A DNA stretch of 64,000 nt from NCBI GenBank assembly GCA_903862655.1, contig CAIOZA010000024.1, forward strand, positions 11,716-75,715, given 5' to 3'. Source of the stretch: an uncultured Ignavibacteria bacterium (GTDB taxonomy: Bacteria > Bacteroidota > Ignavibacteria > Kapaibacteriales > UBA2268). Each line of letters opens with the position of its first letter. Position 1 is the stretch's first letter. The notes beneath the pieces were generated by a model. That model was not told where the DNA came from. It saw nothing but the letters and a program-made list of their open reading frames with translations, and ran no database searches. Shown here one piece after another: positions 45,520-63,163 of this stretch. The position numbers and the translations under genes were made by a program.

Positions 45520-45528
45520 AAATAGCTA

Positions 45529-47546: not shown

Positions 47547-47562
47547 AGTCTTGCCTTTATAT

Positions 47563-47736
47563 TTATTTTGAATTTTCTTCGTTTTCCAATGGTAAACTAC
47601 TCATGTAGTTTGAAAAATTCTTGTCAAGCTTCCAGACATAGATTATTAGTCCTACAAAGAACAGGAAAAATATCAACATCGAAATTATTGACCAGTTATC
47701 GTATCCATTAACAGACTTTAATATATCTTTAAACAT
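47563..47736 (-). CDS. ccoQ: cbb3-type cytochrome c oxidase subunit CcoQ/FixQ (small membrane protein, not in ORF track)
   Basis: 57-aa ORF MFKDILKSVNGYDNWSIISMLIFFLFFVGLIIYVWKLDKNFSNYMSSLPLENEENSK. One TM helix, correct size and position between ccoNO and ccoP. Below the 60-aa ORF-track cutoff. Confidence 0.5.
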   Translation of the reverse strand: MFKDILKSVNGYDNWSIISMLIFFLFFVGLIIYVWKLDKNFSNYMSSLPLENEENSK

Positions 47737-47747
47737 CAAATACCTCT

Positions 47748-49901
47748 TTATTTAGCTTTTATATCAGTGCCAAGTCTTTGCAGATAAGCAATCAATGCTA
47801 TTATCTCGGCACTTTCTTTAACATCGGTAACTCCTTCTGCGACAAGCTGGGTTGCTATCAACTTAGCCTGTGTCTTTAGATCCTGAGGAGCAACTTTGTC
47901 ATATCCGACAGGATATGGAACTCCAAGAGTCATCATTGCCGCAATCTTAGCAGAGACAGATTGAATATCCATTTCCTTGGTCAGGAGCCATGGGAATGCA
48001 GGCATAATAGATCCGGGAGAAATATCTCTTGGATTATTCATGTGCCAGTAATGCCATGAATTGTTGTACTTACCGCCTTCTCTGTGGAGATCGGGTCCGG
48101 TACGTTTAGAACCCCACTGGAATGGATGGTCGTAAACAAATTCGCCCACTTTTGAGTATTCTCTGTATCTTTCTGTTTCCGAGCGGAATGGTCTTACCAT
48201 CTGAGAATGGCATGTATAGCATCCTTCGCGAATATACATATCTCTTCCATAAAGTTCCAAAGGTGTATATGGCTTAACGCTTGCAATTGTCGGAACATTG
48301 GATTTAATCAATATCATTGGGATAATTTCAACAGCTCCGCCAATTGCTATAACAATAGTTGCAACAAACAACATCGCCATTGGCTTGCGTTCTAGCCATC
48401 TGTGTTGTCTTTCGCCAGTTTCTTTAATGTATTGAAAAGGGAAAGGTGTCGCCTGATCTTTTTCATTTTTAACAAATGATCCCTGCTTAGCCGTTTTAAC
48501 TAAATTGTAGACCATCAAGCAAGCACCGACAAGATATATTGTGCCTCCGGTGGCTCTTATCATATACATTGGTAAAATCTGAGTTACAGTTTCAAGGAAG
48601 TTTGGATACTGCAAAACTCCTTCAGGAGTGAATTGCTTCCACATCAACCCCTGAGTAACACCTGCTATATACATTGGAATTACATAAGTAAGGATTCCTA
48701 GAGTGCCAATCCAAAAATGAGCATTAGCCAATTTCTTAGAATATAATTTTGTGTTCCAAAGCTTTGGAATTAGCCAGTATAAAACACCGAATGTGAGGAA
48801 CCCGTTCCAACCAAGTACACCAACGTGGACGTGAGCGATTGTCCAGTCTGTATAATGCGAAAGAGCATTGATACTCTTAACAGCAAGCATCGGGCCCTCA
48901 AGCGTAGCCATACCATAAGCAGTAACAGCAACAACCATGAATTTAAGAATAGGATCTTCTCTTACTTTATCCCATGCGCCACGTAATGTGAGCAATCCAT
49001 TGAGCATACCACCCCAGGATGGAGCAATAAGCATTATTGAGAATACTGTCCCCAATGACTGTGCCCAATCGGGTAATGATGTGTATAATAAGTGATGTGG
49101 TCCAGCCCATATATATATAAACAGGAGTGACCAGAAATGAATAATCGATAATTTGTACGAATATACCGGTCTATTGGCTGCTTTCGGCAGAAAGTAGTAC
49201 ATTAAACCAAGATAAGGTGTGGTTAAAAAGAATGCAACGGCATTATGACCATACCACCACTGAACCAAAGCATCCTGAACACCGGCATAAACTGAATAAC
49301 TGTGCAACCAGGTATAAGGCAATTCCATTGAATTTACCACATGCAATACAGTAATTGTTACCCAAGATGCAATGTAAAACCAGATTGCAACATAAAGATG
49401 TCTTTCACGCCTCTTCAGGATTGTCATGAACATGTTCAATCCGAAAATTATCCAGACAATAGCAATCAGGATATCAATTGGCCACTCCAGCTCGGCGTAT
49501 TCTTTACCTGTTGTGATTCCCGCATGGAAAGTGATAGCAGCCGATGCTATGATTAATTGCCAACCCCAGAAATGTAACTTGCCCAGCATATCGCTGAACA
49601 TTCTGGTTTTGCATAATCTTTGCAGTGAATAATATACTCCCATGAAAATACCATTGCCCACAAAAGCAAATATGGCTGCATTTGTGTGAATGGGTCTTAT
49701 ACGTCCGAATGTTAAAAATTCTGAACCAAAGTTTAATTGTGGCATGAATATAGCAAATGCGACATAAACTCCATAGAGAAATGCAGCTATACCCCAGACA
49801 ACAGTTGCCATAGCAAAGAGTTTTACGATGCCATTGTCATAGTAAAAAGTCTCTAAATTTGCCTGATATTCATTTGATGAAGCGGTAGAGTGTTCAGCCA
49901 T
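47748..49901 (-). CDS. ccoNO: cbb3-type cytochrome c oxidase subunits I+II fused (CcoNO)
   Basis: 717 aa. Heme-copper oxidase subunit I (12+ TM helices, His ligands HFWSL…, HHLLY, HVHVGV) fused to the CcoO monoheme domain (CYTCHSQMVRPF, …GPDLHREGGKYNNSWHYWHM). Confidence 0.9.
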   Translation of the reverse strand: MAEHSTASSNEYQANLETFYYDNGIVKLFAMATVVWGIAAFLYGVYVAFAIFMPQLNFGSEFLTFGRIRPIHTNAAIFAFVGNGIFMGVYYSLQRLCKTRMFSDMLGKLHFWGWQLIIASAAITFHAGITTGKEYAELEWPIDILIAIVWIIFGLNMFMTILKRRERHLYVAIWFYIASWVTITVLHVVNSMELPYTWLHSYSVYAGVQDALVQWWYGHNAVAFFLTTPYLGLMYYFLPKAANRPVYSYKLSIIHFWSLLFIYIWAGPHHLLYTSLPDWAQSLGTVFSIMLIAPSWGGMLNGLLTLRGAWDKVREDPILKFMVVAVTAYGMATLEGPMLAVKSINALSHYTDWTIAHVHVGVLGWNGFLTFGVLYWLIPKLWNTKLYSKKLANAHFWIGTLGILTYVIPMYIAGVTQGLMWKQFTPEGVLQYPNFLETVTQILPMYMIRATGGTIYLVGACLMVYNLVKTAKQGSFVKNEKDQATPFPFQYIKETGERQHRWLERKPMAMLFVATIVIAIGGAVEIIPMILIKSNVPTIASVKPYTPLELYGRDMYIREGCYTCHSQMVRPFRSETERYREYSKVGEFVYDHPFQWGSKRTGPDLHREGGKYNNSWHYWHMNNPRDISPGSIMPAFPWLLTKEMDIQSVSAKIAAMMTLGVPYPVGYDKVAPQDLKTQAKLIATQLVAEGVTDVKESAEIIALIAYLQRLGTDIKAK

Positions 49902-50087
49902 TTAATTCACCTGATTTATTCTTAGATCGTTATTTTCTTCATTATTTTTATCGTTATCCATAAGGATTCTCAAAGAGGGTGTGAATGTGTCTTCATACTG
50001 ATTATTTTTGACAGCCCATAGAAAAGCAGCTAGAAATGAAATTGCCAGAGTAAAACTTATCACAATTAAGATCAACATTACAGTCAT
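49902..50087 (-). CDS. ccoS: cbb3 oxidase maturation protein CcoS/FixS
   Basis: 61 aa with a single TM helix (LILIVISFTLAISFLAAFLWAV). Sits between ccoI and ccoNO, as FixS does. Confidence 0.6.
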   Translation of the reverse strand: MTVMLILIVISFTLAISFLAAFLWAVKNNQYEDTFTPSLRILMDNDKNNEENNDLRINQVN

Positions 50088-50235
50088 TTATGTTCTTTCG
50101 TCAATTTCGATAGTACACAATATAAATGAAAATAAACTAATTATCAAGAACATTTTTGTCTTAAATGAAACCATAATTCATTAACGAGCATCAGCACTAC
50201 TTTTAGAATAATCTACAGGAAATTTTTGCCTCAAA

Positions 50236-52548
50236 TTATATGTGCAGTTTCTTTGCATCATAGCGTACTTTCAAAACTGTAAATGCCATTATACTAAAAG
50301 AACTAACAGGCATAAATATTGCCGAAATCAATGGTGTCAGATTGCCCTGAACAGCAAAGTACAATCCAATAAAATTATACAATATAGAAATAGCAAAGCT
50401 AATATACACAGTTTGAACGCTTTTATTTGTCAGATGAATAAATGCCGGGATTTTTTCGATATTATCAGCCTGCATAATCGCATCCGAGCCAGGAGTGAAG
50501 CTTGAATCTGAATTAGTTACCGCTATTCCCACATTACTCTGTCTGATTGCTCCGGCATCATTCAAACCATCGCCTATCATCATTACTTTTTTATTATCAG
50601 CCTGAAGTTTCTCAATGTGCTCCAGCTTATCAATCGGAAGCTGATTAAACTTAATCACCGTCTTACCATCGGTTATTTGATTCAGATTCTCTTTCTCTGC
50701 ATCATTATCTCCAGAAAGTATCGTTATAGTATATTTTCTTACTAATTCGGAAATAGTGTCCTTAATATTTGATCTGTAAGATGGCCTGACAATATAATAA
50801 CCCATCAGCACATTATTGATTGAAAGAAAAACAGAAGATTCAGTTTGTTGTGTTTCAAAATTAAGATCTTCGAGTACGGAACAATTCGTTAATGGATTTT
50901 TAACAAATCCAAGTTTACCCATTCTGACCGATACACCTTCGAATTCGGCTTCAATACCTTTGCCGGGAGTCTCAGTGAAATTTCTTATCTCAACATTATT
51001 TTTATCTTTATGGAATAGGAATACCAGTCTGCTGAGCGGGTGGGTGGAATGCTTAGCTATGGATTTGATAAGGATAGTTTCATCTTCGCTTAATGTTTTT
51101 CCCAAATATTCAACGCTGCTTTTCGAAATGTCAGTCAGTGTGCCGGTTTTGTCAAAAATTATAGAATCAATCTTTGAAATACTTTCAACAATATTAGCAT
51201 TCTTCAGAAAGAAACTGTTCCTGCTGAAGACTCTTAGAACTGTGCCATAAGTATAAGGCAGAACCAGGGCAAATGCACAGGGACATGCAATGATAAGAAC
51301 AGATGTGAACGAATTAAAAGCTAAATTTAGATTCTTAGGTAACCAATAAAGAAAACTGCCGCTTGCCAGCAGAAGTATTCCAATGGTGAACCACATTGCG
51401 GCTGTATTTGAGATATTGGAAGAATAACTGTCGTCATTCTTTGCGAAAGCCTTATGGTTCCATAGTTCAGTGATATAACTCTGGAAAAATGCCTTCACGG
51501 CTTTAACTTCGATAGAGCTTCCCTGGTGGATGCCTCCGGCATAAATTTTCTGTCCTTTAGCCACATCCACCGGTTTTGATTCCCCGCTAACAAAACTGTA
51601 GTCGATCATTGCTGAATCTGACTCCAATATTGAATCAGTTGGAACAATCTCGTTGTTGCGAATAATGAGATTATCGTCCGGTTTGATTTCATTCAAAGAT
51701 ACGAATTCTTCAACATCGTTGCGCTTCCGGATGACAGAAAGCGGGAAATAGGATTTATAGTCACGATCGAACGAAAGGCTATAAAAGGTTTTCTGCCTGA
51801 ATATCCTGCCGACTAACAGTAGGAAAACTAATCCGGCCATTGAATCGATGAATCCAGGACCCCTGCCGCTTAATATATCTATTGCACTTCTTATAAGCAA
51901 AGCTAAAATGCCAAGACTGATCGGAAGATCTATATTGATATAACCAAGTTTCAGACTGGTCCATGCTGTTTTGAAGAAGTCCGATGCCGAATACATCAAT
52001 GCTCCGCCAAGCAACAAGCTCAAATATCCGAAGTACTTTTTAAATTCAGGCTCAAGAAGCCCACCGGACAAGTATTCTGGAAAAGCAAAAAGCATAACAT
52101 TGCCGAAAGCGAATCCTGCGACACCGACCTTTAGAAAAATTGACTTGTTAATTCCAATTGTCTTTTTGCCCTCGATGTCAGATATATTCAGATGTGGTTT
52201 ATATCCAATAGAAGTGATAAGTTCGACTATCTTTCGTAATGATGTCTGCTCTTCATTGTAGGTAATTGAAATATCTTTCTTGAGGAAATTCACTGTTGAT
52301 TCAAGCACACCTTTGTCAAGTCGGTAAAGATTTTCCAACAGCCAGATACAGGCACTACAGTATATCTCCGGAATGAACAGAGTAATCTTAGAAGTTCCAT
52401 TAATACTAAATTGAAGCAGTTTTTCCTGTATTCCTTTGTCGTCCAGAAAAGCAAATTCTGATTTGTCGAAACTCTTAGGTTTGATGCCACTTTTGCGGGC
52501 TAATTTATAGTAATTATCAAGGTTATTGTCATTGAGAAGTTCATGCAC
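50236..52548 (-). CDS. ccoI: copper-translocating P1B-type ATPase CcoI/FixI (annotated from first canonical start; true N-terminus probably ~30 codons upstream)
   Basis: HMA-like CSAC. TM CPC motif (IIACPCAFALV). DKTGTLT phosphorylation site. GDGLNDAGA hinge. Upstream in frame, with no ATG/GTG/TTG, lies …DVVCYHCGDYC…FCCSGCLF, matching the conserved CcoI N-terminus (CYHC…CC.GC). Confidence 0.85.
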   Translation of the reverse strand: MHELLNDNNLDNYYKLARKSGIKPKSFDKSEFAFLDDKGIQEKLLQFSINGTSKITLFIPEIYCSACIWLLENLYRLDKGVLESTVNFLKKDISITYNEEQTSLRKIVELITSIGYKPHLNISDIEGKKTIGINKSIFLKVGVAGFAFGNVMLFAFPEYLSGGLLEPEFKKYFGYLSLLLGGALMYSASDFFKTAWTSLKLGYINIDLPISLGILALLIRSAIDILSGRGPGFIDSMAGLVFLLLVGRIFRQKTFYSLSFDRDYKSYFPLSVIRKRNDVEEFVSLNEIKPDDNLIIRNNEIVPTDSILESDSAMIDYSFVSGESKPVDVAKGQKIYAGGIHQGSSIEVKAVKAFFQSYITELWNHKAFAKNDDSYSSNISNTAAMWFTIGILLLASGSFLYWLPKNLNLAFNSFTSVLIIACPCAFALVLPYTYGTVLRVFSRNSFFLKNANIVESISKIDSIIFDKTGTLTDISKSSVEYLGKTLSEDETILIKSIAKHSTHPLSRLVFLFHKDKNNVEIRNFTETPGKGIEAEFEGVSVRMGKLGFVKNPLTNCSVLEDLNFETQQTESSVFLSINNVLMGYYIVRPSYRSNIKDTISELVRKYTITILSGDNDAEKENLNQITDGKTVIKFNQLPIDKLEHIEKLQADNKKVMMIGDGLNDAGAIRQSNVGIAVTNSDSSFTPGSDAIMQADNIEKIPAFIHLTNKSVQTVYISFAISILYNFIGLYFAVQGNLTPLISAIFMPVSSFSIMAFTVLKVRYDAKKLHI

Positions 52549-52882
52549 AAAAAGACAGCCAGAACAACAGAACGATTTTTCTTCCCGCTGGATAATCTCA
52601 GTTGTACAGTAATCACCACAATGATAGCAAACTACATCAATATTTTCTGAAGACTTAATAATGTCTATTGATTTTTTTAGTTTAGTCTAAAAATTAGTAT
52701 ACAAACTTAACTACATTTGATATATTTTCAAATTCAATTTTCAATTTAATAATTTTCTGATCTATTAAGAATTTTAATGCTTCTCGGAGCATTTAATGTG
52801 CTATTATTTTTTTATATTAACAAATAAAGTCATTATATTTGTATTGAATAATACAATTATCAAAGCTGTTAAAGGCAATACA

Positions 52883-53755
52883 ATGAAAAAAGCACTTCTA
52901 ATAATCGTTATCTTGTCTTTCTGCATTAGCTGCAAAAAAGATAATCCAACTGTTCCTGTCGTTGAGCCTCATATTTCTTTTATTACACCTTCAACTGCTT
53001 TAATTGGTTACACTGTTTCAATTATTGGTTCTAATTTTGGTTCTTCAAAGGATTCTAATTCAGTTTCTATCAATGAAATTATTGTTTCCCAATATATTAG
53101 CTGGAGTGATACTTTAATAAAAATAACAGTTCCTGTGGGGGCATCTACCGGTAAATTATATCTTAAAGTTAATGATTTAAAAAGTAATGAAATTAATATC
53201 ACTTTAGGTGTAACTATTAACTATGAAATGATTAAAATAGGTTCTCAAATCTGGATGTTAAGAAATCTTGATGTTGACCATTATCGTAATGGTGATCCAA
53301 TACCTGAAGTTAAGGATCCAAATGATTGGCTAAAACTTAAAACTGGTGCTTGGTGCTATTTTTATAATGATTCTAGTTTCGGCATAACCTATGGTAAACT
53401 TTACAACTGGTATGCTGTTAATGATCCTCGTGGATTAGCTCCTGAAGGTTGGCATATTCCATCTGACATAGAGTGGACAACATTATCTTCATATCTTGGT
53501 GGTTCAAGTGTAGCTGGAGGCAAGCTGAAAAATGAAAGTGGCTTTTCCGCTCTCCTCGGAGGTTACCGCCACAGCGATGGTATATTCGACTATATTGCGT
53601 ACAGCGGCAATTGGTGGTCTTCTACTGAGAGCGGTACAATGGTCCTCCCGTACTACCCATGGTACAGATATATCTACTCCTACAACGCTGAAATATGCAG
53701 ATACAAAACCTATGCGGGTTTTGGCTTTTCTGTCCGTTGCATTAAAGACAACTAA
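52883..53755 (+). CDS. lipoprotein with IPT/TIG domain and Fibrobacter succinogenes major paralogous (FISUMP) domain
   Basis: ORF track 52796..53755. The Met at 52883 gives lipoprotein signal MKKALLIIVILSFCISC. IPT-like FITPSTALIGYTVSIIGSNFG. C-terminal half is ~60% identical to 23701..24600 (…GWHIPSDIEWTTL…GFSALLGGYR…NWWSSTES…GFSVRCIKDN). Confidence 0.7.
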   Translation: MKKALLIIVILSFCISCKKDNPTVPVVEPHISFITPSTALIGYTVSIIGSNFGSSKDSNSVSINEIIVSQYISWSDTLIKITVPVGASTGKLYLKVNDLKSNEINITLGVTINYEMIKIGSQIWMLRNLDVDHYRNGDPIPEVKDPNDWLKLKTGAWCYFYNDSSFGITYGKLYNWYAVNDPRGLAPEGWHIPSDIEWTTLSSYLGGSSVAGGKLKNESGFSALLGGYRHSDGIFDYIAYSGNWWSSTESGTMVLPYYPWYRYIYSYNAEICRYKTYAGFGFSVRCIKDN

Positions 53756-53973
53756 ACCAAGAGTAATTCTATTTCCACTGCGTTCCAATTCTATTGCTCT
53801 TAAATGCCATGACTTACATTATCGCACGACCAGCTGTCCCGACAGATCGTTTTTTTTCATTAACAGAGTTTGCTGATTCGTTGTCTGCTGACCTAGTAAA
53901 TCATTATTCATTCTACTTTGGACTTTCTACTTTTAACTCTTTTCGATGTCAAAATATTTATTATCTTTGATTT

Positions 53974-55047
53974 ATGAAAAAACGAAAAATTAAGAAAGCA
54001 TTTAAGAGACTCTTCAATCTGCCACCGGGGTTAGATTTATTCAAGTATGTTGTTAATAAACTTGAGAATATATCCTTCCGCGCTAAGAAGAGCACTTATG
54101 TAGCCTATCCATCAAATCTCATGCTGGAAGTAACAAATTACTGTAATCTCCATTGTATAACCTGTGCACGTGAATATGCTTTCGGAGCTGATATGGCTAT
54201 AGGCCACATGGATATCAACCTTCTAAAGAAGATTATCGATCAGGCTTATCCATACATAGATTCTGTAGGGCTGACAGGTCTTGGCGAACCGACTCTTTAC
54301 AAGCATCTGCCTGAGGCTCTAAGATATATCAAAGCCAAGAACAAGGGCATCATCACAAGTATGTCCACAAATGCATCAATAAGTGCCTCGGTTGATAAAA
54401 TTCGCGAGATCAAGAATGATATTGACACAATCCAGGTTTCAATCGATGGAATCGGAGAGGTTTACAACTCTATTCGCAAAAATGGTAATTATGACAAATT
54501 TCTCCAGAATCTGATACAAATCTCTGAAATTGTTTCCGGTAGTGAGGTTGACATTGCGCTCAACACTGTTGTTGTGAAAGAAAATTTCCGGCAAATGAGC
54601 GATCTGATAAGATTGGCTCATGATCTTAAATTGACTAATATGAACTTCACCATATTCAATCTGGCTTCTGTCACAGATATCCCGATAGAATACTATGACT
54701 TCTATCACACAAAAGAATTTCTTGATGAACTAAGCAAAGCTAAGGATACAGCACAGAAATATCCGGAAATTGATGTAACGTTTTGGGATTATAAGACCGA
54801 GAATGGATTTGACAAGTGCCACTATCCATTCAATCATTTCTACGTTTCCTGGGATGGGTATATGCCTCCATGCTGTGCCAAACCATTCCCCAAGATTATG
54901 AACTTCGGTGACTTCAACAATTCCAGCCTGATCGATATACTAAATTCAGATGGTATTCGGCAGTTCCGCGAACTTTCGTACAAGAATATAACACCAGATT
55001 TCTGCCAAAAATGTAATTATATAGACTTGAAGCCCATTAAGAAATAA
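53974..55047 (+). CDS. radical SAM enzyme with C-terminal SPASM/twitch-type Cys cluster
   Basis: CNLHCITC (CxxxCxxC) at residues ~57-64. GLGEPTL SAM-binding motif. C-terminal CHYPFNHFYVSWDGYMPPCC…FCQKCNY auxiliary cluster pattern. Confidence 0.75.
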   Translation: MKKRKIKKAFKRLFNLPPGLDLFKYVVNKLENISFRAKKSTYVAYPSNLMLEVTNYCNLHCITCAREYAFGADMAIGHMDINLLKKIIDQAYPYIDSVGLTGLGEPTLYKHLPEALRYIKAKNKGIITSMSTNASISASVDKIREIKNDIDTIQVSIDGIGEVYNSIRKNGNYDKFLQNLIQISEIVSGSEVDIALNTVVVKENFRQMSDLIRLAHDLKLTNMNFTIFNLASVTDIPIEYYDFYHTKEFLDELSKAKDTAQKYPEIDVTFWDYKTENGFDKCHYPFNHFYVSWDGYMPPCCAKPFPKIMNFGDFNNSSLIDILNSDGIRQFRELSYKNITPDFCQKCNYIDLKPIKK

Positions 55048-55188
55048 ATTTCTTTTTTTGTGTTAAATATTAGACGGGTTGATTAAATTTATAATTATTT
55101 TACAATATTTTGTAACTTTTATGCTTTTCAAACTATATTATAATAATACATAAGTACAAAATCAATTTTCTTTTTTAGAGGCACCGTT

Positions 55189-58100
55189 ATGAAAAAGCTT
55201 ACTTTCTTACTCGTCCTTTTTCTATTAATTGGTTTACTCCATGCGCAGGATCCTGATCTTACTAAAATCCCAAGCTTTCTTGGGGCAACAAGCTTCAGTA
55301 ACGAATTCTGGGTTACAATCCCTCCATGCTATATGGATGAAAGCGGTGTTGATTCTAATTTCATTAAAATTTTTGTGACCTCACAAGGCAAAACAGAGGT
55401 TACAGTCGAAGTTCCGGGAAAAGGATACCTTTTAACAAAGAATTCTATACCAAATGATATTATTGAATTCAATATCTCACCGGAAGATGGGCAACCGTTT
55501 ACAAAAAGAGGTCCGGAGAAACCACCTGCAGAAAGGATATTCCCCGGTGCAGGAATACATATTTTTGCAGATCAGCCGATTGCATGCTATGTTGTTGTAC
55601 GTTACAAATATACATCGGATGGCTTTCTGGCAATTCCTGTGTCAGCATTGGGCAATGAATATATAGTTGCCGGTTTTAATGAAGAAGGAATGAATGGTCA
55701 GAATATTATTTTGCCTAATATGACAGGCATAGTAGCAGCTTTCGATGATACGCAGGTGCAATTCACTCTCGGTGGAAATAGTGGTACAATAACTGCCGGT
55801 GGCATGAAACCGGGAGATATGGTGAATTTCACAATGCAAAGAGGTGATGTTTGGATGGTTTCAACTGGAAGAGGTGAAGCTGATCTTTCCGGGAGCAAGA
55901 TAGTATCCTCCAAACCAGTAGGTGTTGTTACGGGCAATCAATGTGCTGACATACCAACTGGCAATCGATGGTGCGACTATACTGTCGAAATGGATTTGCC
56001 GACTTATACCTGGGGAACGGATGTAATCGTTCCGAAAGTTCCTTATAGAAAATTTCCTTCAATAGTCAGAATTTTTGCCAAAGAGCCTAATACAAATATT
56101 TATAAAGACTGCAAGTTGATTGGTCAGCTAAAGACTGGTGGCGGTATAGAAGGCAACGGATATCTATCTATGCGTATGGGACCGTATGTTTCAACCCCTA
56201 AGCCAAAATCGGCCGTATTTTCCGGAGATAAACCTATAAATGTAGTTTTATATAACACAGGTGTTGAGGAAGACGGCAATTCTCAAGGCATCGGTGATCC
56301 ATTTGTTATGGGAATTTCTCCTGTAGAACAATTCCAGACTGAAATTCTCTTTTGTACTCCTGGAATCAATGGCGGAATGGGATTCGCCCAAAATTATGTC
56401 AATCTTGTTTATGAAACTGATGAAAATGGAATGATTCCTGATGATCTTGAGTTTTCGACAGTTGTTGGAGGTCAATTTCAGTGGACAAAATTAAAATCTA
56501 AGTTCGACGGGGTAGATGAATTATTACCTTGTAAAGTTAATGGTAAGCAATATGCTGTCAAGCTGATTACACTGACAGGCGACGGAGTTTATAAGATTAG
56601 GGCTAAAAATCCGTTTGCTGCATATTCATTCGGATATTCGGATTATGATTCCTACGGCTATCCTGCTGCTGCAAGAATGTGGGATCAGGAAAAACAAGAT
56701 ACAATCCAGCCCACAGTAGTTTACAATGGTGTCGACTTTTCGAAACGCGGATCAGTAACTGCCTCAGTTACTGATATGCCCGAAAATGCCTCCATAAGGT
56801 CAAATCTGGGTTTGATCACTTTACAGCAAAATTTGTCAACTAATTGCGTTTTACATTACGATCCTATTGTGCCTGGTTCAACACGATCGACCTCATGGAA
56901 GGTGGATGTAATAAATAAAAATATCCCGTCTGTAGCTGTAATTTCTTTTTATGACAGACGCGGCAACGACTCTATTGTCGTTCTTAAATATGAACCGCAA
57001 TCGAATCAAAATTTTGTTCTACTGGTTTCACCCAAAGACAAAACTGAGAATTTACCCATAGACATCAAATTCATCTGGAACAAAGCCCCAGTAACTTCAT
57101 ACCGTTTTCAGATATGCGAGAATAGTGTGTTTGACAATACTGCCCTGTCTTTCGATCTGAAAGATACATTCAAATTAGTATCTGGTCTTAAGAAATATAC
57201 CTCTTATTACTGGAGAGTACAGAGTCTTAGCGACGATTCGATTAAGGTAGTTTTAGGATCATCCGCAATTTGGCAATTCAAGACGGAAACAGGCAAACCA
57301 GAAAAGGTTACATTGATTACACCCGCAAACAACGCTAAAGGATTGAAAACACATATAGAATTCACTTGGGATTACAATTCTCAGCCACAACCCGATAAGT
57401 ATAACATAGAGGTTGCACGTGACTCAGCCTTCATTGATTGGGTTAATACTGAAGACAATATTCCTATTAAGAAGACAGATTTAATAATATACAAAAACAA
57501 TAATTATTACTGGCGTGTTAATGCTGTTAATTCAGCTGGAACCGGTCCGTGGTCTGATGTTTGGAAATTCAATGTAACAAATGACGCTGTAAGATTGAAA
57601 CTGCCTGCAAACAATTCTCAAAATATGCTTCTGACCGGTGAACTGAGATGGGAAAGTATCAGCGGATCGAAATATCAGGTGCAAGTATCCACAACGGAAG
57701 ATTTTTCGAGCACAGTTATGGATATTTCAGATATTCAGTTTACTTTTGTCAGTTACACTCTTTTAACAAATAGTAAATACTACTGGCGTGTACGTGCTAT
57801 TGACAGCTTGACAAGAGAATGGTCAGAAGTCTGGAATTTTGTGACAATTCCAAATGTACCTGTTGCTTTCAATCTGCTTTCACCACCCGACAAGTCAGTC
57901 CGTCAGGAATTCAACCCGACTTTCCGATGGACAAATGCCGGCATGAGTGTGCAATATACTGTACTAATCGGATCAGATCCAAACGTTACAACTAATCTTC
58001 AGGAGTTCACCACAACAAATGAATATCTGACAGTATCCCTCAACCCAAACCTAACATACTATTGGACGGTAAAGGCGAAAAACTACTCAGGAACATCCTA

Positions 58101-58407
58101 CTCCAAAGAAGTCTGGTCAGTCAAAACCGGAACAATACTCGATGTAGCTCAATTGAATGAAAATGAGCCGGGTATCACCATCGAACCCAATCCTGTTCAA
58201 GATATACTTACTATACAACTTTCAGAAAGCTTAAAGCTTTCCGAAAGTGCAAAGTTGGAGATATATTCAACACTCGGATTGAAAATGTATTCTGTAGGGG
58301 CAGGTTCTAAACCTGCCCATGAGTTGAAAATCGATGTCTCCTCTCTGCCAGCGGGGATGTATTTTGTGAGGATAGGTGAGTTGGTTCAAAAGTTTATGAA
58401 GATATAA
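55189..58407 (+). CDS. large T9SS-secreted surface protein with four tandem fibronectin type III (FN3)-like repeats
   Basis: 1072 aa with a signal peptide. Four ~95-aa repeats each ending (Y)YW(R/T)V…W(S/K)…(W/F) (57.0-58.1 kb). C-terminal …EPNPVQDILTIQL…MYFVRIGELVQKFMKI T9SS sorting domain. Confidence 0.75.
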   Translation: MKKLTFLLVLFLLIGLLHAQDPDLTKIPSFLGATSFSNEFWVTIPPCYMDESGVDSNFIKIFVTSQGKTEVTVEVPGKGYLLTKNSIPNDIIEFNISPEDGQPFTKRGPEKPPAERIFPGAGIHIFADQPIACYVVVRYKYTSDGFLAIPVSALGNEYIVAGFNEEGMNGQNIILPNMTGIVAAFDDTQVQFTLGGNSGTITAGGMKPGDMVNFTMQRGDVWMVSTGRGEADLSGSKIVSSKPVGVVTGNQCADIPTGNRWCDYTVEMDLPTYTWGTDVIVPKVPYRKFPSIVRIFAKEPNTNIYKDCKLIGQLKTGGGIEGNGYLSMRMGPYVSTPKPKSAVFSGDKPINVVLYNTGVEEDGNSQGIGDPFVMGISPVEQFQTEILFCTPGINGGMGFAQNYVNLVYETDENGMIPDDLEFSTVVGGQFQWTKLKSKFDGVDELLPCKVNGKQYAVKLITLTGDGVYKIRAKNPFAAYSFGYSDYDSYGYPAAARMWDQEKQDTIQPTVVYNGVDFSKRGSVTASVTDMPENASIRSNLGLITLQQNLSTNCVLHYDPIVPGSTRSTSWKVDVINKNIPSVAVISFYDRRGNDSIVVLKYEPQSNQNFVLLVSPKDKTENLPIDIKFIWNKAPVTSYRFQICENSVFDNTALSFDLKDTFKLVSGLKKYTSYYWRVQSLSDDSIKVVLGSSAIWQFKTETGKPEKVTLITPANNAKGLKTHIEFTWDYNSQPQPDKYNIEVARDSAFIDWVNTEDNIPIKKTDLIIYKNNNYYWRVNAVNSAGTGPWSDVWKFNVTNDAVRLKLPANNSQNMLLTGELRWESISGSKYQVQVSTTEDFSSTVMDISDIQFTFVSYTLLTNSKYYWRVRAIDSLTREWSEVWNFVTIPNVPVAFNLLSPPDKSVRQEFNPTFRWTNAGMSVQYTVLIGSDPNVTTNLQEFTTTNEYLTVSLNPNLTYYWTVKAKNYSGTSYSKEVWSVKTGTILDVAQLNENEPGITIEPNPVQDILTIQLSESLKLSESAKLEIYSTLGLKMYSVGAGSKPAHELKIDVSSLPAGMYFVRIGELVQKFMKI

Positions 58408-58426
58408 AGCAGAAACCCCCCTTAAT

Positions 58427-58507
58427 CCCCCTTGGAACAAGGGGGAAACAAAAACATTAATTGCAATACATGTATTAGCCCCCTTTTTCAAAGGGGGTTG
58501 GGGGTTT
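58427..58507 (+). terminator. pair of C5/G5 hairpins in the intergenic spacer (terminator or REP-like)
   Basis: CCCCCTTG-gaa-CAAGGGGG (58427..58445) and CCCCCTTT-ttc-AAAGGGGG (58479..58497), the latter followed by TTGGGGGTTTC. GC-rich islands in an AT-rich genome. Sits between two + strand genes. Confidence 0.35.
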
Positions 58508-58549
58508 CAAAAAAGAAGTATACTTGATAAAAAACATATCTAGGAAAAT

Positions 58550-60718
58550 ATGAAAAAAGTAATTTTGGTTTTGGTAATTGTAGTTTTATTGTTTGGATCT
58601 TGTTTAGCTCAGAATTATCAAGTTATCCATCATTTCGATAATACAAATGGAGATGGTGCCTTTCCTTATGGTACTTTAATTGAATCAGACTCTGTCTTGT
58701 ATGGAACTACATCAAGTGGTGGAGATAATGGCAAAGGAACAATTTTCAAAATTAAACCGGATGGTAAGGGTTATCAAAAAATATATTCATTCCAAGGCGG
58801 GAAACTCAATAGTTCACAACCATGTGGTTCGTTGTTGAAGATTGGTTCTGCATTCTATGGTATGACAAGAAATGGCGGAACAATTGATTCGGGAACTGTT
58901 TTCAAAATTAACAAGGATGGTTCAGGTTTTGAACTCCTTCACTCGTTTACTGGTGCTTGTATAGACGGCAGGAATCCCGAAGCATCCCTGATTAATTCAG
59001 GTAATACATTGTATGGGATCACAATGTTTGGTGGCACAAAGGATTCCGGAACAGTTTTCAAAATCAATACTGATGGTAGCGGTTATGAGGTTATTCATTC
59101 TTTTGATCAAAACAAAAATGAAGGTATTATGCCAATGTATCCTCTTATTATTTCAGGTTCTGTTTTATATGGTACGACAATTTGGGGTGGACGTGCCGGT
59201 GAGTTAATATACGCTGGAACAATTTACAAATTAAATACTGATGGATCTAATTTCGGAAATTTGCATGTTTATGATTTTCCTGACATATCACCTTCCGGTG
59301 CATTAGTTCTATCAAATTCCGTTTTATATGGCAATACATGCTGTGGCGGTATACCAGGTACGATTTTTCAATTAAATCCAAATGGTATGGATTATACTAA
59401 TCTTCATGAGTTTTCACACTTTAATAAGCTAGGAATAAGCCCCCATAGCACTTTAATATTATCCGGAGATTATCTATATGGGACCACTTGGAGGGGAGGA
59501 ACTAATGATTCAGGCTTAATATTCAGAGTAAATATTAATGACACTAACTATTCAGTTCTTTATAATTTTTTGGGTTCAAATACAGATGGTTCAAGACCCA
59601 ATTTCAATGATTTATTCAAATATAAAAGCTATTTATATGGAATGACACTAAAAGGCGGCTCAAAAGATCAAGGAATTATCTTTAGATACACAGACTCTGT
59701 ATTGGCTGATACCTGTGGTTTTTACTCTTTTGATTACACGAATTTTGACAATACTTCAGATTTAGCATTCAACGGAGTCGCTACAGCTTTGGATTCGAAT
59801 GTAAGAATATGCCAAAGATTAAACAATGTATCAGGATCTGTTTTCTATAAAAGACCTATTCCAGTAGCCTGCAACTTTTATACAAATTTCACATTTCGAT
59901 TTTCAGAAGGTTACAATGATTATGAAGATGGTTCTCCTGCTGGTGCGGATGGAATGGCTTTCATTATCCAGGCAACGGACACAAAAAACATCGGTACGAG
60001 CGGTGGCGGACTCGGATATTGGGGTATATCGAACAGCTTGGCAATAGAATTTGATTCTTACAATAATGGACTTGATTTCAATGAAAATAACGGTAGCCAC
60101 CTGGCAGTAATGTCAAACGGGAAAAAGCCCAACACAAGTAAGCACAATCTAAAATCACAATTGGCTTACACAACAGATATACCAATATTAAAAGCAGATT
60201 CAACTGTCTATCATTGCAGGATAGAATATGTTTATAATCAAAATAGAATGAAGATTTGGCTTGACACAACCGGAGAATTCGTGCAACCGGTACTTGAGGT
60301 GGATTCACTTGATTTAGCTTCATTGATCAATCTCATAAATATGAACAAAGCATACATTGGCTTTACATCATCAACAGGAACATCTGTGGAAAACACTGAT
60401 CTTCTATCGTGGTCATTCTGCTATAATCAGGTTCAGCCGATAACAGGTATTGAAGAACCGCATGCAGACAATTCAAATGACATGATATATCCTAATCCTG
60501 CAACGGATTTCATAGAAATTTCTTATCCCCCTCTTGAGAGGGGGTCAGGGGGTGTGGATATTAAGATAATGAATGTTTATGGGCAAATACAGACCACCTC
60601 GTTACTTCGTGACACCCCTGCCGGCGGGGAAAAAGTTAGAATCGATGTTTCGGGTTTGGCTCCGGGGATGTATTTTGTGAAGATTGGGGATAGAGTCGGG
60701 AAGTTTGTTAAAATATAG
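58550..60718 (+). CDS. T9SS-secreted protein: N-terminal ~48-aa tandem repeats (Gloeo_Verruco-type) + L-type (legume-like) lectin domain + T9SS CTD
   Basis: Seven repeats of the form (L/V)YGTT..GG…GT(I/V)FK(I/L)N.DGSG(Y/F)..(L/I)HSF. Lectin core GADGMAFIIQ…GGGLGYWGI.NSLAIEFDSY. C-terminal IYPNPATDFIEI…MYFVKIGDRVGKFVKI. Confidence 0.75.
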   Translation: MKKVILVLVIVVLLFGSCLAQNYQVIHHFDNTNGDGAFPYGTLIESDSVLYGTTSSGGDNGKGTIFKIKPDGKGYQKIYSFQGGKLNSSQPCGSLLKIGSAFYGMTRNGGTIDSGTVFKINKDGSGFELLHSFTGACIDGRNPEASLINSGNTLYGITMFGGTKDSGTVFKINTDGSGYEVIHSFDQNKNEGIMPMYPLIISGSVLYGTTIWGGRAGELIYAGTIYKLNTDGSNFGNLHVYDFPDISPSGALVLSNSVLYGNTCCGGIPGTIFQLNPNGMDYTNLHEFSHFNKLGISPHSTLILSGDYLYGTTWRGGTNDSGLIFRVNINDTNYSVLYNFLGSNTDGSRPNFNDLFKYKSYLYGMTLKGGSKDQGIIFRYTDSVLADTCGFYSFDYTNFDNTSDLAFNGVATALDSNVRICQRLNNVSGSVFYKRPIPVACNFYTNFTFRFSEGYNDYEDGSPAGADGMAFIIQATDTKNIGTSGGGLGYWGISNSLAIEFDSYNNGLDFNENNGSHLAVMSNGKKPNTSKHNLKSQLAYTTDIPILKADSTVYHCRIEYVYNQNRMKIWLDTTGEFVQPVLEVDSLDLASLINLINMNKAYIGFTSSTGTSVENTDLLSWSFCYNQVQPITGIEEPHADNSNDMIYPNPATDFIEISYPPLERGSGGVDIKIMNVYGQIQTTSLLRDTPAGGEKVRIDVSGLAPGMYFVKIGDRVGKFVKI

Positions 60719-60727
60719 AGGTTTGAA

Positions 60728-63163
60728 ATGAAAAAGTACATCTACTTTGCTTTTGTTGCATTATTTTTAGTTAGTGCTGCTTATTCAAATGAAAAAATAA
60801 ATATGAAATGGTTCAAGGGTTATGGCGGTAAGGGAGCAGATATGTTCAGGTTCGTCGGTTATGATAAAGAAGGGAGCTATTATGTCACAGGTATTATTGA
60901 AAGGGACAGTATATATTTTGGAAACGGGATTGGTATAGATTTTACAAGCCTTAATTCAAAATACGTTCTCCTAAAGTTTGACAGATATGATGTTTGCCAA
61001 TGGGCAAGAACAACCCAAGCAGTGAAATATGGGGAATGCCATATCATGCCTTATAAATTAACAGTTGATTCTGATGGGAATATTATTATTCTATCGACAT
61101 GGTACAAATCTGATTATAGGGCTGTAAAAAACATCGATTTCGGGAATGGTGTAATACTCGATGGAAAAGGTGGAGTCGATATTATTCTTCTAAAATATGA
61201 TTCAAACGGTAACTGTATCTGGGGGAAATGTATCGGCAGTGGTGCAAATGATAGTGATTATGATATGACGATGGATAGCAGTAATAACATTTATATTTCA
61301 GGCTATTCTGGGTTTTCAACAAATAGTAATGGTCCGGGGGATATTGATTTTGGTAGTGGGATAATTCTTAAAATTGACACTATGTATGTTGGGCATTTTG
61401 CAAAATACTCAAAAGATGGAAATTGCCTATGGGCTAAAAAGCTTTCACATCCGACGTGTAATACAGGAAATTCTGGAGGATATATTACGTTTTGCCAGAA
61501 CGGTACTATTATGCTTTTTGGCAGTTTTGGTGTCAACACTGATTTTGGGGATGGCAATTATGTAGATTTTACAAATTCTGGAACTTATGATTTTGAAACA
61601 TTTATTGCGAATTATTCATTGGATGGTAACCTAAATTGGGTTAAAATATTAGGAATTCCAGCAATCGCCACAATATCAACGCCAGTCATTAAACAAAATT
61701 CTGAATTCTATTTTACTGGGCAGTTTTCAGGTGATATACAACTTGCCCCAGGTTTCCCTTTAAAATCAACCGGTAGTTCAAATTTTTATCTGGCAAAATG
61801 TGATTCAAAAGGAAATTTACAGTGGGCAAAAAGTTATGGAGGCGACTATAAGGATTATGGAAATGTTTATATTGATAATCAGGATAAATTGTACCTTTAT
61901 GGCTACACGCAATCAAAATCTCTTGATTTTGGGAACAATCATGTAATAAGTCCGGATTCGGGCAAAGCTACATTATTTCTTGCCGCTATCGATGATTTAG
62001 GTAATGTGAATACATTGAATACAGTTTATGGTATAATTAAGGATGATTTTACTTCATTATCGGGTGTTGATTATTTGACAAGTGATAATGACGGTAGTTT
62101 CTTGATGACAGGACATTTCAATGGTTCGGTTACTAGTAATAAAACAACCTATACTAGCTCAGGAAATTGCGATGCATTTTTAGTGAAATTTAATACCGGT
62201 TGTGTTACAATAACTGATTATTTCAATAACATCGTAGGTTTGAATTTAGTCCAGTCTGCCGAAATTATAAACTCATTTATCCGAATGACGCCTTCAAGAC
62301 AGCAGGTTAAGGGTGCCGTGTGGTATGAAAATATTGTTTCTGTGAAAAACGGATTTACTACTGATTTCAAATTCCGTATGTCCAGACCTTACAACGCATT
62401 TGATGATGGTTCACTTCCCGGTGCAGATGGTATTGCTTTTGTTATTCAGAATTCAAACCAGTCGGCTTGTGGTAATTCTGGCGGCGGACTTGGTTTTGAG
62501 GGTATTCAGAATAGCTTTGCTGTGGAATTTGATACTTACAGGAATAATGACGTATCATACAATGATGCTGATGGCAATCATATCGCTGTTTTCTGCAACG
62601 GAACAAAGCCAAATCTTGCAGATCATCAATCATCAGCATGTAAAGGAACTACGAATAAAATAATACCTATCAAAGCAGACAGCACAATCTATTATGCTCG
62701 AATCTATTATGATTACGGACAAAAGAAGCTTCAGATTTTTCTAGATACAATCGGAGCATTTATCAAACCAGTACTCGAAATAGATTCAATTGATTTATCA
62801 AAAATGCTAACATTAAATAACGGCACAATGGCTTATGCAGGTTTTACAAGTGCGACAGGTACTTCGTATGAAACTCAGGATATTATGGATTGGATATTTT
62901 GTTCAAAATCTTCAAGTTCAATTACAAACGTTGAAGAAAACCAGAATATACAAATTGATAACAATTCGGCGCTATTTCCAAATCCAATTATTGATTTTCT
63001 AAATATCAATGGATCAAGTAATCAGAAAGTCGAAATCTACTCTGCTCTCGGTTTAAGAGTTTTAGAAACAGAGTGGAAGGAAAAGATCGATGTTTCCGGT
63101 TTGTCTCCGGGAATGTACTTTGTGAGGGTGGGGGATATAGTTAAGAAGTTTGTGAAGTTCTAA
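60728..63163 (+). CDS. T9SS-secreted protein: beta-propeller (SBBP-like) repeats + L-type lectin domain + T9SS CTD
   Basis: 811 aa. SBBP-like motifs (…DMTMDSSNNIYISGYS…, …YGGDYKDYGNVYIDNQDKLYLYGYT). Lectin core GADGIAFVIQ…GGGLGFEGIQNSFAVEFDTY, paralogous to 58550..60718. CTD LFPNPIIDFLNI…MYFVRVGDIVKKFVKF. Confidence 0.75.
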   Translation: MKKYIYFAFVALFLVSAAYSNEKINMKWFKGYGGKGADMFRFVGYDKEGSYYVTGIIERDSIYFGNGIGIDFTSLNSKYVLLKFDRYDVCQWARTTQAVKYGECHIMPYKLTVDSDGNIIILSTWYKSDYRAVKNIDFGNGVILDGKGGVDIILLKYDSNGNCIWGKCIGSGANDSDYDMTMDSSNNIYISGYSGFSTNSNGPGDIDFGSGIILKIDTMYVGHFAKYSKDGNCLWAKKLSHPTCNTGNSGGYITFCQNGTIMLFGSFGVNTDFGDGNYVDFTNSGTYDFETFIANYSLDGNLNWVKILGIPAIATISTPVIKQNSEFYFTGQFSGDIQLAPGFPLKSTGSSNFYLAKCDSKGNLQWAKSYGGDYKDYGNVYIDNQDKLYLYGYTQSKSLDFGNNHVISPDSGKATLFLAAIDDLGNVNTLNTVYGIIKDDFTSLSGVDYLTSDNDGSFLMTGHFNGSVTSNKTTYTSSGNCDAFLVKFNTGCVTITDYFNNIVGLNLVQSAEIINSFIRMTPSRQQVKGAVWYENIVSVKNGFTTDFKFRMSRPYNAFDDGSLPGADGIAFVIQNSNQSACGNSGGGLGFEGIQNSFAVEFDTYRNNDVSYNDADGNHIAVFCNGTKPNLADHQSSACKGTTNKIIPIKADSTIYYARIYYDYGQKKLQIFLDTIGAFIKPVLEIDSIDLSKMLTLNNGTMAYAGFTSATGTSYETQDIMDWIFCSKSSSSITNVEENQNIQIDNNSALFPNPIIDFLNINGSSNQKVEIYSALGLRVLETEWKEKIDVSGLSPGMYFVRVGDIVKKFVKF

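Follow-up and report, generated by a model that had tools for sequence, protein, structure and literature searches.

BtrN, the 2-deoxy-scyllo-inosamine dehydrogenase of butirosin biosynthesis, is the founding twitch-domain radical SAM enzyme. Four Cys residues in its twitch domain fully ligate one [4Fe-4S] cluster, and it acts as a sugar dehydrogenase (PMC6231123). Twitch domains are shortened SPASM domains, in which three or four conserved Cys bind one [4Fe-4S] cluster (PMC9477430, PMC6231123); SPASM domains proper have seven or eight conserved Cys (PMC9477430), the seven-Cys motif reading CX9-15GX4C-gap-CX2CX5CX3C-gap-C (PMC6231123). In anSME and most RiPP SPASM enzymes there are seven or eight Cys and two clusters (PMC9477430), and function in this radical SAM subfamily is hard to predict from sequence (PMC6231123).

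How does the radical SAM (rSAM) protein encoded at 53974-55047 of the window (the whole 64-kb stretch of DNA analysed here) compare with these systems? The gene is a genuine and complete ORF of 357 codons with an ATG start, and its product, which retains the full domain architecture and every conserved residue, has the CX3CX2C motif in a partial TIM-barrel core that marks the radical SAM superfamily. Pfam Radical_SAM matches residues 52-214 (E 1e-15, 58.7 bits against a gathering threshold of 29.5) and Pfam SPASM residues 282-348 (E 1.4e-13, 51.3 bits against 21.5), and the AF2 model has a mean pLDDT of 87.7 and a pTM of 0.88. The enzyme class is a known one, of which this is an ordinary, though uncharacterised, representative; the features in and around its gene are as follows.

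53974-55047, + strand: radical SAM gene, its product ending in a twitch-type (truncated SPASM) domain (ORF, Pfam, AF2)
53974-54111, + strand: cationic N-terminal extension, aa 1-46 (alignment, DSSP, pLDDT)
54142-54165, + strand: CX3CX2C motif CNLHCITC, with C57, C61 and C64 (translation, alignment)
54808-55044, + strand: twitch-type auxiliary-cluster domain, aa 279-357 (Pfam SPASM, BtrN alignment)
54868-54894, + strand: family signature PCCAKPFPK, aa 299-307 (invariant in a 32-member alignment)
53756-53973, no strand: intergenic region upstream, free of conserved ORFs and Rfam elements (tblastx, ORF list, Rfam)
55048-55188, no strand: downstream AT-rich intergenic region (19.9% GC) with no conserved ORF (tblastx, ORF list)

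The original prediction of a SPASM/twitch-class radical SAM enzyme is borne out by the two Pfam matches, and the motifs that it quoted are all present: CNLHCITC, C282 in FDKCHYPF, DGYMPPCC with C300 and C301 at 54871-54876, and CQKC at 55003-55014. The three Cys of CNLHCITC, invariant in 32 family members and present in 93-94 of 94 wider relatives, are predicted to bind the [4Fe-4S] cluster that cleaves SAM. The C-terminal Cys cluster also described there stands as regards its motifs, but not as a full SPASM complement, as there are only five conserved Cys in this part of the family (C282, C300, C301, C344 and C347) rather than seven or eight. Their layout is C282-x12-G295-x4-C300-C301, a gap of 42 residues and C344-x2-C347, with a further 10 aa to the end of the protein; there is no CX2CX5CX3C block and no final Cys, which a second auxiliary cluster would require, and no Cys follows the CxxC in 84 of the 94 wider relatives. 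The Pfam SPASM model that matches the protein also covers twitch-like truncations.

In an alignment of the family profile with residues 167-242 of 4m7s, the twitch domain of BtrN, C282, C300, C344 and C347 fall opposite four BtrN Cys, and because of this a single auxiliary cluster with C301 as a spare conserved Cys is predicted, the make-up, as far as sequence can tell, of a twitch domain. The C300-C301 pair, opposite 'C-F' in BtrN, is shared by 90 of the 94 wider relatives and lies within PCCAKPFPK, where the extra C301 adjoins the predicted ligand C300. In both BtrN and the rSAM family, the chain finishes shortly beyond the CxxC. Some 75 C-terminal residues are aligned; significance over this stretch is borderline (domain E about 1e-3), and the whole-sequence profile E is 8e-9. 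The family differs from BtrN in having a larger core, the extra C301 and a cationic 46-aa N-terminal extension, and the gene, unlike that of BtrN, is not in an aminoglycoside cluster.

In the AF2 model (DSSP) this extension (aa 1-46) comprises two helices (3-14 and 20-37) and no strands, with pLDDT 92-97 for aa 11-50. Its net charge across aa 1-40 is +11, the first helix shows strong amphipathicity (hydrophobic moment 0.82), and R12, P17, Y25, N28 and K29 are invariant in the family alignment; more distant relatives do not have it, their matches beginning at profile positions 30-46. An RRE would be a PqqD-like winged helix (a three-stranded beta-sheet plus three helices), either fused or encoded in an adjacent gene. 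No such domain was found in the model, the extension being too short and having no beta-sheet, and no PqqD-like adjacent gene recurs in the 182 loci surveyed below. The cationic amphipathic helix may keep the protein at the membrane's inner face. A cationic N-terminus of this kind would fit nucleic-acid binding equally well.

Comparison with other named systems gave no assignment. The best family-model matches are to TIGR04317, the tungsten cofactor oxidoreductase radical SAM maturase (114.6 bits against a cutoff of 380, residues 48-351 aligning to model positions 5-317 of 349), and to NF033640, an N-terminal twitch model (99.2 bits against 170). Membership of both was rejected on these scores; the former is an equivalog model, for which, in addition, no aldehyde:ferredoxin oxidoreductase gene, or other tungsten aldehyde oxidoreductase neighbour, was found in the window. 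The SPASM maturases anSME, SuiB, CteB and PqqE, and the twitch sactisynthase SkfB, are 14-19% identical to the protein, which differs from the SPASM maturases in having neither the CX2CX5CX3C block and final Cys for a second cluster nor an RRE, nor a precursor or sulfatase partner. Membership of anSME is further discounted by the five Cys and by the results with NCBIfam, where no anSME model is among the best 25 matches (of 58 families at E<=0.01) and none listed reaches its cutoff. DesII and BlsE, which are sugar-nucleotide radical SAM enzymes, show 14-15% identity and no specific relationship, scoring no better than peptide-modifying enzymes. Orthology to a housekeeping radical SAM enzyme such as MoaA had been named in advance as an outcome that would overturn the original reading; this is partly what emerged, in that the protein belongs to a large stand-alone family often found among housekeeping genes, but MoaA itself (GTP 3',8-cyclase, TIGR02666) is matched only through the core (residues 49-221; 51.7 bits against a cutoff of 284).

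The family is large, tightly conserved and stand-alone, and has neither a curated model nor a characterised member. At E<=1e-5 the search gave 527 homologues. Identity to the window protein is 47-89% among the best 120, nearly all of which align across at least 95% of its length. The tight family shows 46-63% identity (about 50% across phyla) and has carriers in at least 586 GTDB species of Bacteroidota, Ignavibacteria, Zixibacteria and some other groups; it is also found outside the FCB group, in a Syntrophorhabdaceae MAG and in sequences labelled Fimbriimonadaceae. Culturable species that carry the gene include Carboxylicivirga marina, Natronoflexus pectinivorans and Anaerophaga thermohalophila. 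A wider clade with the '(P)CC-twitch' signature comprises 569 clusters (50% identity) at E<=1e-30. No NCBIfam cutoff is reached by the family or by the intermediate and wider relatives, and a full-text literature search found no paper on it.

What, then, can be learned from the surroundings of the gene? In the window, it is preceded at 52796-53755 by a gene for a Fib_succ_major (FISUMP) and TIG protein with a lipoprotein-like signal (MKKALLIIVILSFCISC), and followed at 55189-58407 by one for an IgGFc_binding and Por_Secre_tail protein; legume-lectin and Por_Secre_tail proteins are encoded at 58550-60718 and 60728-63163. The neighbours had been described as a FISUMP lipoprotein gene and an array of T9SS lectin cargo genes, and this is correct except that the first cargo protein has no lectin domain. 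The upstream flank contains only a 58-aa TTG ORF and a 30-aa antisense ORF, and the downstream flank TTG ORFs of 22-24 aa. None of the ORFs of at least 20 aa in these flanks is conserved in the closest relatives by tblastx, in which homology extends only from about 53937 to about 55054, that is to the ends of the ORF; the reported absence of a precursor ORF here thus holds. A search of the whole window against Rfam gave nothing at gathering scores, with only chance-level matches near the rSAM gene. No sulfatase gene was present among the window ORFs in a Pfam scan (44 of 50 ORFs of at least 120 aa), and no glycan-biosynthesis genes were found in the window.

Neighbouring genes were then surveyed across genomes by all-against-all clustering of ORFs, at 87 loci and subsequently in 183 sequences (the window and 182 loci, in 59 lineage groups). 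No conserved partner was evident: no neighbour family occurred in more than six of the 59 lineage groups, the recurring neighbours being confined to lineage-specific synteny and to generic families (ABC transporters, response regulators and SDRs), and among 95 non-redundant immediate neighbours no Pfam family occurred more than five times. In about 50 of the 59 groups the gene lies among unrelated or housekeeping genes, such as those for PDH E1-alpha/recF, gap/pgk or nqrA/nqrB. Even relatives in the same 90% cluster (P0001, 89% identical, and P0122), and others at 76% and 63% identity, have wholly different neighbours. Small ORFs conserved near the gene (the clustering took in those of at least 50 aa) proved to be either antisense artefacts inside the rSAM ORF or lineage-specific, and so provided no precursor candidates. 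An ABC-transporter cluster with a C39-peptidase-type exporter, which has a RiPP-like look, was set aside, as its distance from the gene is variable and usually 5-6 kb, and nine of the 13 loci that have it come from a single lineage group.

Informative contexts were found in eight of the 59 lineage groups, including sister clades of the window's organism, and consist of glycan or membrane-glycosylation clusters of two types. In the first (L006, L090, L091 and L095), the rSAM gene begins 4 bp after a gene for a membrane acyltransferase-like protein, and in three of these groups a GT2 gene follows closely; the conserved order is acyltransferase, rSAM, GT2, a second GT2 (244 aa), DUF2304 and a B12-rSAM protein, and genes for an epimerase, a DegT aminotransferase, a deacetylase and a methyltransferase are also present in these clusters. 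The best NCBIfam match of the 244-aa GT2 is to PpgS, polyprenyl-phospho-GalNAc synthase (107 bits, below the model cutoff). In the second type (L092/L093, L096, L117 and, from a Bacteroidales MAG, L076), a conserved polytopic membrane protein of about 510 aa is encoded beside or near the rSAM gene, which in three of these four groups is divergent from a gene for a PMT_2-type GT-C glycosyltransferase. This membrane protein has no Pfam, NCBIfam or PDB match, and its profile weakly resembles the PMT_2 region (by hhalign, with a probability of 56% and E 1e-4). In a neighbour-joining tree, the window protein falls together with those of L089 and L094, in a group whose sister is the first cluster type and which lies near the second. 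DUF386/YhcH genes are adjacent to the rSAM gene, or within about 1 kb of it, in three lineage groups. The loci on which the glycan link rests are a minority of those surveyed.

Our preferred reading, to which we attach a probability of roughly 45%, is that the protein is a stand-alone, BtrN-like enzyme with a single auxiliary cluster that tailors sugars of envelope glycoconjugates. Its substrate would most likely be a sugar of a nucleotide- or polyprenyl-phosphate-linked glycoconjugate precursor, and is probably not a ribosomal peptide or protein. Weighing against this reading are the small share of loci behind the glycan link, the lack of glycan-biosynthesis genes in the window and the poor predictability of function in the subfamily (PMC6231123). 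The CX3CX2C cluster would cleave SAM reductively, and the resulting 5'-deoxyadenosyl radical would take a hydrogen from a carbohydrate C-H. In an oxidation, the fully Cys-ligated auxiliary cluster would then accept an electron to give a keto-sugar, as in BtrN; in an epimerisation, the spare Cys301 might return a hydrogen atom to the opposite face. The choice between these reactions, the sugar carrier and the membrane association are all points that we infer. A bolder conjecture, which we regard as quite improbable, is that the family and the wider PCC-twitch clade, present in 586 or more species (of Bacteroidota, Ignavibacteria and other phyla), are membrane-peripheral enzymes that oxidise or epimerise polyprenyl-phosphate sugars on the cytoplasmic side before GT-C transfer, with Cys301 as hydrogen donor, as a radical and oxygen-independent counterpart of DprE1/DprE2-type epimerisation of lipid-linked sugars.

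As an intact orphan radical SAM gene, the gene in the window is an ordinary finding, with eye-catching but coincidental neighbours; its wider value is as a pointer to a family with clear twitch architecture and the diagnostic PCCAKPFPK, which a few informative genomes place in polyprenyl-phosphate-sugar or GT-C glycosylation clusters. If sugar tailoring is its true role, this would give Bacteroidota and related groups a new radical reaction in the making of envelope glycans, and would correct the reflex labelling of SPASM matches as RiPP or protein maturases.

Other readings must be set against sugar tailoring. The substrate could be non-peptide without being a sugar (a membrane lipid, a cofactor precursor or RNA), which we consider possible, if on balance unlikely. 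A lone gene amid housekeeping genes in most genomes would be in keeping with this, as would a cationic amphipathic helix suited to a membrane or nucleic-acid interface; the best single-sequence PDB match is the archaeal lipid enzyme GDGT-MAS (28.7 bits), and genes for an acyltransferase and an acyl-ligase are near the rSAM gene in L092 and L096. However, all of these are weak similarities of a generic kind, the family has no recurrent lipid, cofactor or RNA-modification gene beside it, and the partners that do recur are proteins of the glycosyltransferase type. A maturase acting in trans on a protein or peptide (anSME-like, QhpD-like, or a RiPP enzyme with a distant precursor), its target encoded outside the window, is an unlikely candidate, given that no family cutoff is reached, that no small ORF (of at least 50 aa) is conserved across the 59 lineage groups, that the scanned window ORFs include no sulfatase, that five Cys and one predicted cluster contrast with the seven or eight Cys and two clusters of anSME and most RiPP SPASM enzymes (PMC9477430), and that the informative contexts are all glycan-related. 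A RiPP role specifically is unlikely because there is neither an RRE domain nor a precursor gene, adjacent or conserved.

It had been proposed that the enzyme may modify a protein in trans, the secreted T9SS cargo and the FISUMP lipoprotein encoded next to it being the nearest candidates. Physical adjacency in the window is in its favour, and in a test with an iterated CTD HMM and Fisher tests (on the first 87 of the 182 loci) genes for T9SS-CTD proteins were nominally enriched within two genes on either side (18/300 against 26/867, p = 0.02). However, this set takes in redundant loci of one Chitinophagales synteny block, the CTD genes that immediately adjoin the rSAM gene are mostly on the opposite strand, and immediate neighbours are not enriched (8/156, or 5.1%, compared with 3.8% of all genes; p = 0.36). 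FISUMP and T9SS neighbours are missing in the relatives that are 89%, 76% and 63% identical, and the family extends outside the FCB group. In the window itself, the rSAM gene is parted from its two neighbours by gaps of 218 and 141 bp, and its GC3 (0.42) matches that of the cco genes (0.43-0.46), not that of the cargo and FISUMP genes (0.28-0.34). As no neighbour recurs, the neighbours of relatives differ and T9SS genes are not enriched next to the gene, modification of the adjacent FISUMP or T9SS proteins is unsupported, all the more so with no RRE and with glycan contexts elsewhere; we consider it very improbable, and the position of the gene between them coincidental. A viperin-like or other anti-phage defence role, which is suggested by matches to PADLOC pVip models (65 and 57 bits) and by the toxin-antitoxin (HicB, PemK) and DUF2283 genes near the gene in its closest relatives, is extremely improbable: the pVip matches are confined to the radical SAM core (residues 51-251) and leave out the conserved auxiliary-cluster domain, NCBIfam viperin (NF038283) scores 50.6 bits against a cutoff of 180, and the housekeeping synteny of the family is stable in many lineages. 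The earlier rejection of viperin was therefore sound.

Finally, we draw attention to fusion proteins among the wider relatives. Their extra domains mostly have no Pfam match, but one is a TPR fusion, and in another, the more distant P0239, the partner is a GT4 glycosyltransferase, which adds to the indirect evidence for a link with glycans.

The radical SAM gene was as first described, an ATG-started ORF whose product has Radical_SAM and SPASM domains by Pfam, and the four motifs quoted for it were all found. The neighbouring FISUMP (Fib_succ_major) lipoprotein and T9SS cargo genes also stood, as did the lectin cargo at 58550-60718 and 60728-63163, but not the lectin assignment for the nearest cargo gene, at 55189-58407.

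52796-53755, Fib_succ_major plus TIG protein with a lipoprotein-like signal
53974-55047 (+), radical SAM gene, ATG start, 357 aa
Residues 52-214, Radical_SAM (Pfam E 1e-15, over gathering score)
54142-54165, CNLHCITC motif
Residues 282-348, SPASM (Pfam E 1.4e-13, over gathering score)
FDKCHYPF motif, containing C282
54871-54876, CC of the DGYMPPCC motif
55003-55014, CQKC motif
55189-58407 (+), IgGFc_binding plus T9SS sorting domain protein, without a lectin domain
58550-60718 (+), legume-lectin plus T9SS sorting domain protein
60728-63163 (+), legume-lectin plus T9SS sorting domain protein

The flanks hold a few short ORFs (one of 58 aa with a TTG start, one of 30 aa in antisense and several of 22-24 aa in a spacer of 19.9% GC), none of them conserved in any relative, and in tblastx comparisons with the closest relatives homology was confined to ~53937 to ~55054, which bears out the view that no precursor-like short ORF lies there. 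No RNA element was found with Rfam.

A full SPASM domain has seven cysteines (CX9-15GX4C-gap-CX2CX5CX3C-gap-C) and binds two clusters, while the truncated version, the twitch domain, has three or four cysteines and one cluster (PMC6231123; PMC9477430). Among 32 aligned family members (alignment A1), C57, C61 and C64 are invariant, and the C-terminal part has just five invariant cysteines, C282, C300, C301, C344 and C347, in the pattern C-x12-G-x4-CC, a gap of 42 residues and C-x2-C, the protein stopping ten residues further on. The last 75 residues of the family profile align with the twitch domain of BtrN, in which four cysteines fully ligate one [4Fe-4S] cluster (PMC6231123); these stand opposite C282, C300, C344 and C347, and in both cases the chain ends shortly past the CxxC. 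From this correspondence and the truncated cysteine pattern, the C-terminal domain is classed, on sequence, as twitch-type with one additional conserved cysteine, C301. The 3 + 5 pattern is also present in a wider clade (569 clusters at 50% identity, E<=1e-30), where 90 of 94 full-length representatives retain the CC pair and 84 have no later cysteine. A confident AF2 model (mean pLDDT 87.7, pTM 0.88) shows residues 1-46 folded as a pair of helices, the first strongly amphipathic; this N-terminal extension has invariant R12, P17, Y25, N28 and K29, and a net charge of +11 across residues 1-40. It was considered as an RRE (the PqqD-like winged helix of RiPP maturases) and rejected, being too short and lacking the required beta-sheet.

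The best 120 of 527 homologues (E<=1e-5) range in length from 349 to 405 aa and in identity from 47% to 89%, with source names such as Bacteroides, Anaerophaga, Carboxylicivirga, Flavobacteriaceae, Chitinophagales, Syntrophorhabdaceae and Fimbriimonadaceae. Relatives occur in at least 586 GTDB species representatives, the best 80 belonging to Chitinophagales, Bacteroidales, Marinilabiliales, Ignavibacteria and Zixibacteria. The core family collapses to about ten full-length clusters in a 50%-identity library and so forms a tight, probably isofunctional group. No NCBIfam model attained its cutoff for the protein (TIGR04317, 114.6 bits, cutoff 380; NF033640, 99.2 bits, cutoff 170; PqqE, 52 bits, cutoff 381; MoaA, 51.7 bits, cutoff 284), and literature searches found no paper on the family. 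Intact and conserved, the gene adds an uncharacterised member to the twitch/SPASM radical SAM enzymes, a class already known. For the window this is an ordinary finding, and the proposed link to the neighbours fails; the family itself, being large, tightly conserved, unannotated and marked by a diagnostic PCCAKPFPK motif, is a reasonable experimental target.

The original prediction was that the enzyme may act in trans on a protein, the nearest candidates being the adjacent FISUMP or T9SS proteins. Neither kind of gene is found beside the closest relatives: P0001 (89% identity) and P0122, of the same 90% cluster, lie among small ORFs and DUF2283, toxin-antitoxin, HD_4 and OMP genes, a 76% relative is flanked by YgbA_NO and HD_4, and a 63% relative is downstream of a TauE gene. 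When all ORFs were clustered across 182 loci (59 lineage groups at 75% identity of the radical SAM protein), no neighbour family was common to more than six groups; the shared ones were generic (ABC transporters, response regulators, SDRs), and synteny was lineage-specific, with the gene inserted in housekeeping pairs such as PDH E1-alpha/recF, gap/pgk and nqrA/nqrB, or beside hemCD. T9SS sorting domains were not enriched at immediate neighbours in the first 87 loci (5.1% versus 3.8% of all genes, p = 0.36); the nominal enrichment within two genes on either side (p = 0.02) includes redundant loci of one Chitinophagales synteny block. GC3 of the radical SAM gene (0.42) is like that of the respiratory (cco) genes (0.43-0.46) and unlike the markedly lower 0.28-0.34 of the FISUMP and T9SS cargo genes (52883-53755 and 55189-63163), the low value of the cargo array suggesting a different expression level or evolutionary history. 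On these grounds the adjacency in the window is accidental. A second FISUMP gene lies beside Omp28 and DUF6029 genes (23701-24600, 24919-25776 and 25813-27468, all (-)), and such scattering of paralogues makes a specific link with the FISUMP gene at 52796 weaker still. In relatives of the same 90% cluster (L001 4468-4641; L097 7079-7294; L098-L102) a small DUF2283 gene, absent from the window, begins 4 bp past the end of the radical SAM gene's stop codon, with toxin-antitoxin genes (HicB and PemK) nearby.

Tight, recurrent clusters surround the gene in eight lineage groups. Type A loci (L006, from a Syntrophorhabdaceae MAG, L090, L091 and L095) have the following order:

Gene 1, membrane acyltransferase-like protein, about 360 aa
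Gene 2, radical SAM gene, after a 4-bp gap
Gene 3, GT2 glycosyltransferase, directly downstream in three of the four groups
Gene 4, GT2, 244 aa, best NCBIfam match PpgS, polyprenyl-phospho-GalNAc synthase (107 bits, under cutoff)
Gene 5, DUF2304
Gene 6, B12-binding radical SAM protein

The clusters also carry epimerase, DegT aminotransferase, deacetylase, methyltransferase and additional glycosyltransferase genes. Polyprenyl-phosphate-sugar synthases and their activators show this pairing of a small GT2 with a DUF2304 protein, as in PpgS/Rv3632 and GacI/GacJ. In type B loci (L092/L093, L096, L076, from a Bacteroidales MAG, and L117) a conserved polytopic membrane protein of about 510 aa is encoded next to the radical SAM gene, upstream or downstream (L092 9092-10609; L096 9075-10643; L076 8211-9776), or about 3.2 kb downstream (L117). 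It has invariant motifs DAYNYA, HHL.YN and MRYATENETYIIP, no Pfam or NCBIfam match, and at profile level a weak resemblance to the region of PMT_2 (hhalign probability 56%, E 1e-4); three of these groups also have a divergently transcribed PMT_2-type GT-C glycosyltransferase. Adjoining this module in L092 (652-5565 (-)) and L096 (542-5527 (-)) is a gene for a conserved protein of ~1640-1660 aa (57-59% identity between the two genomes) with no Pfam domain, which could be a glycosylation target of the module. A neighbour-joining tree, drawn with no bootstrap, places the window protein in a group with L089 and L094; this group is the sister of type A and lies near the type B loci L092 and L096. 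The window protein shares 55-57% identity with type A proteins, versus 46-53% with most Bacteroidota members. In three lineage groups DUF386/YhcH genes adjoin the radical SAM gene or lie no more than about 1 kb from it, and in a more distant relative (P0239, 729 aa, 156 bits against the family profile), from a representative library, a related radical SAM/SPASM-type domain is naturally fused to a GT4 glycosyltransferase.

Our tentative reading, at a probability of roughly 0.45, is that the enzyme attacks a C-H bond in the sugar of a precursor for envelope glycans. SAM would be cleaved at the C57/C61/C64 cluster, and the 5'-deoxyadenosyl radical would take hydrogen from the sugar, which may be nucleotide- or polyprenyl-phosphate-linked; the cationic amphipathic N-terminus may keep the enzyme at the membrane. 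Radical SAM epimerases use a cysteine thiol as hydrogen donor, and Cys301 might serve in this way to yield an epimer. Alternatively, the fully ligated auxiliary cluster might oxidise the radical to give a keto-sugar, as in the proposal for BtrN (PMC6231123).

The sugar reading is weakest in that no functional context comes from about 50 of the 59 lineage groups, and in that structure cannot tell the substrate classes apart. Action on some other non-peptide substrate, whether lipid, cofactor or RNA, is conceivable though doubtful. A protein or peptide maturase working in trans seems unlikely; the gene has no precursor gene or conserved neighbour, and its product has no RRE. That the enzyme modifies the cargo or FISUMP proteins encoded alongside it is highly improbable, the adjacency being accidental, and a viperin-like defence role, already dismissed in the original prediction, has a negligible likelihood: the viperin model NF038283 gave 50.6 bits (cutoff 180), and PADLOC pVip models matched only the radical SAM core.

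Elsewhere in the window, there are flagellin and FliD genes (28552-29499 and 30005-31441 (+)) besides several T9SS cargo genes, the three named above and one at 10738-13785 (-). With the FISUMP, cbb3 oxidase and ACIII genes, this gene content suggests a flagellated bacterium of the FCB group, most likely of the Ignavibacteriota and not of the Bacteroidota. A respiratory block occupies 38872-52548 (-):

38872-40254 (-), NrfD
40232-43348 (-), ACIII-like ActB
43548-44120 (-), multihaem cytochrome c7
47748-49901 (-), fused CcoN-CcoO, cbb3 oxidase cluster
Within the cbb3 oxidase cluster (-), FixP, FixG, FixH and DsbD_2
49902-50087 (-), CcoS, cbb3 oxidase cluster
50236-52548 (-), CcoI, P-type ATPase, cbb3 oxidase cluster

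Four histidine-kinase genes stand in a row at 15085-23089 (-), one of them for a hybrid kinase (16832-19114 (-)) that combines a Tll0287-like sensor domain with a receiver domain.
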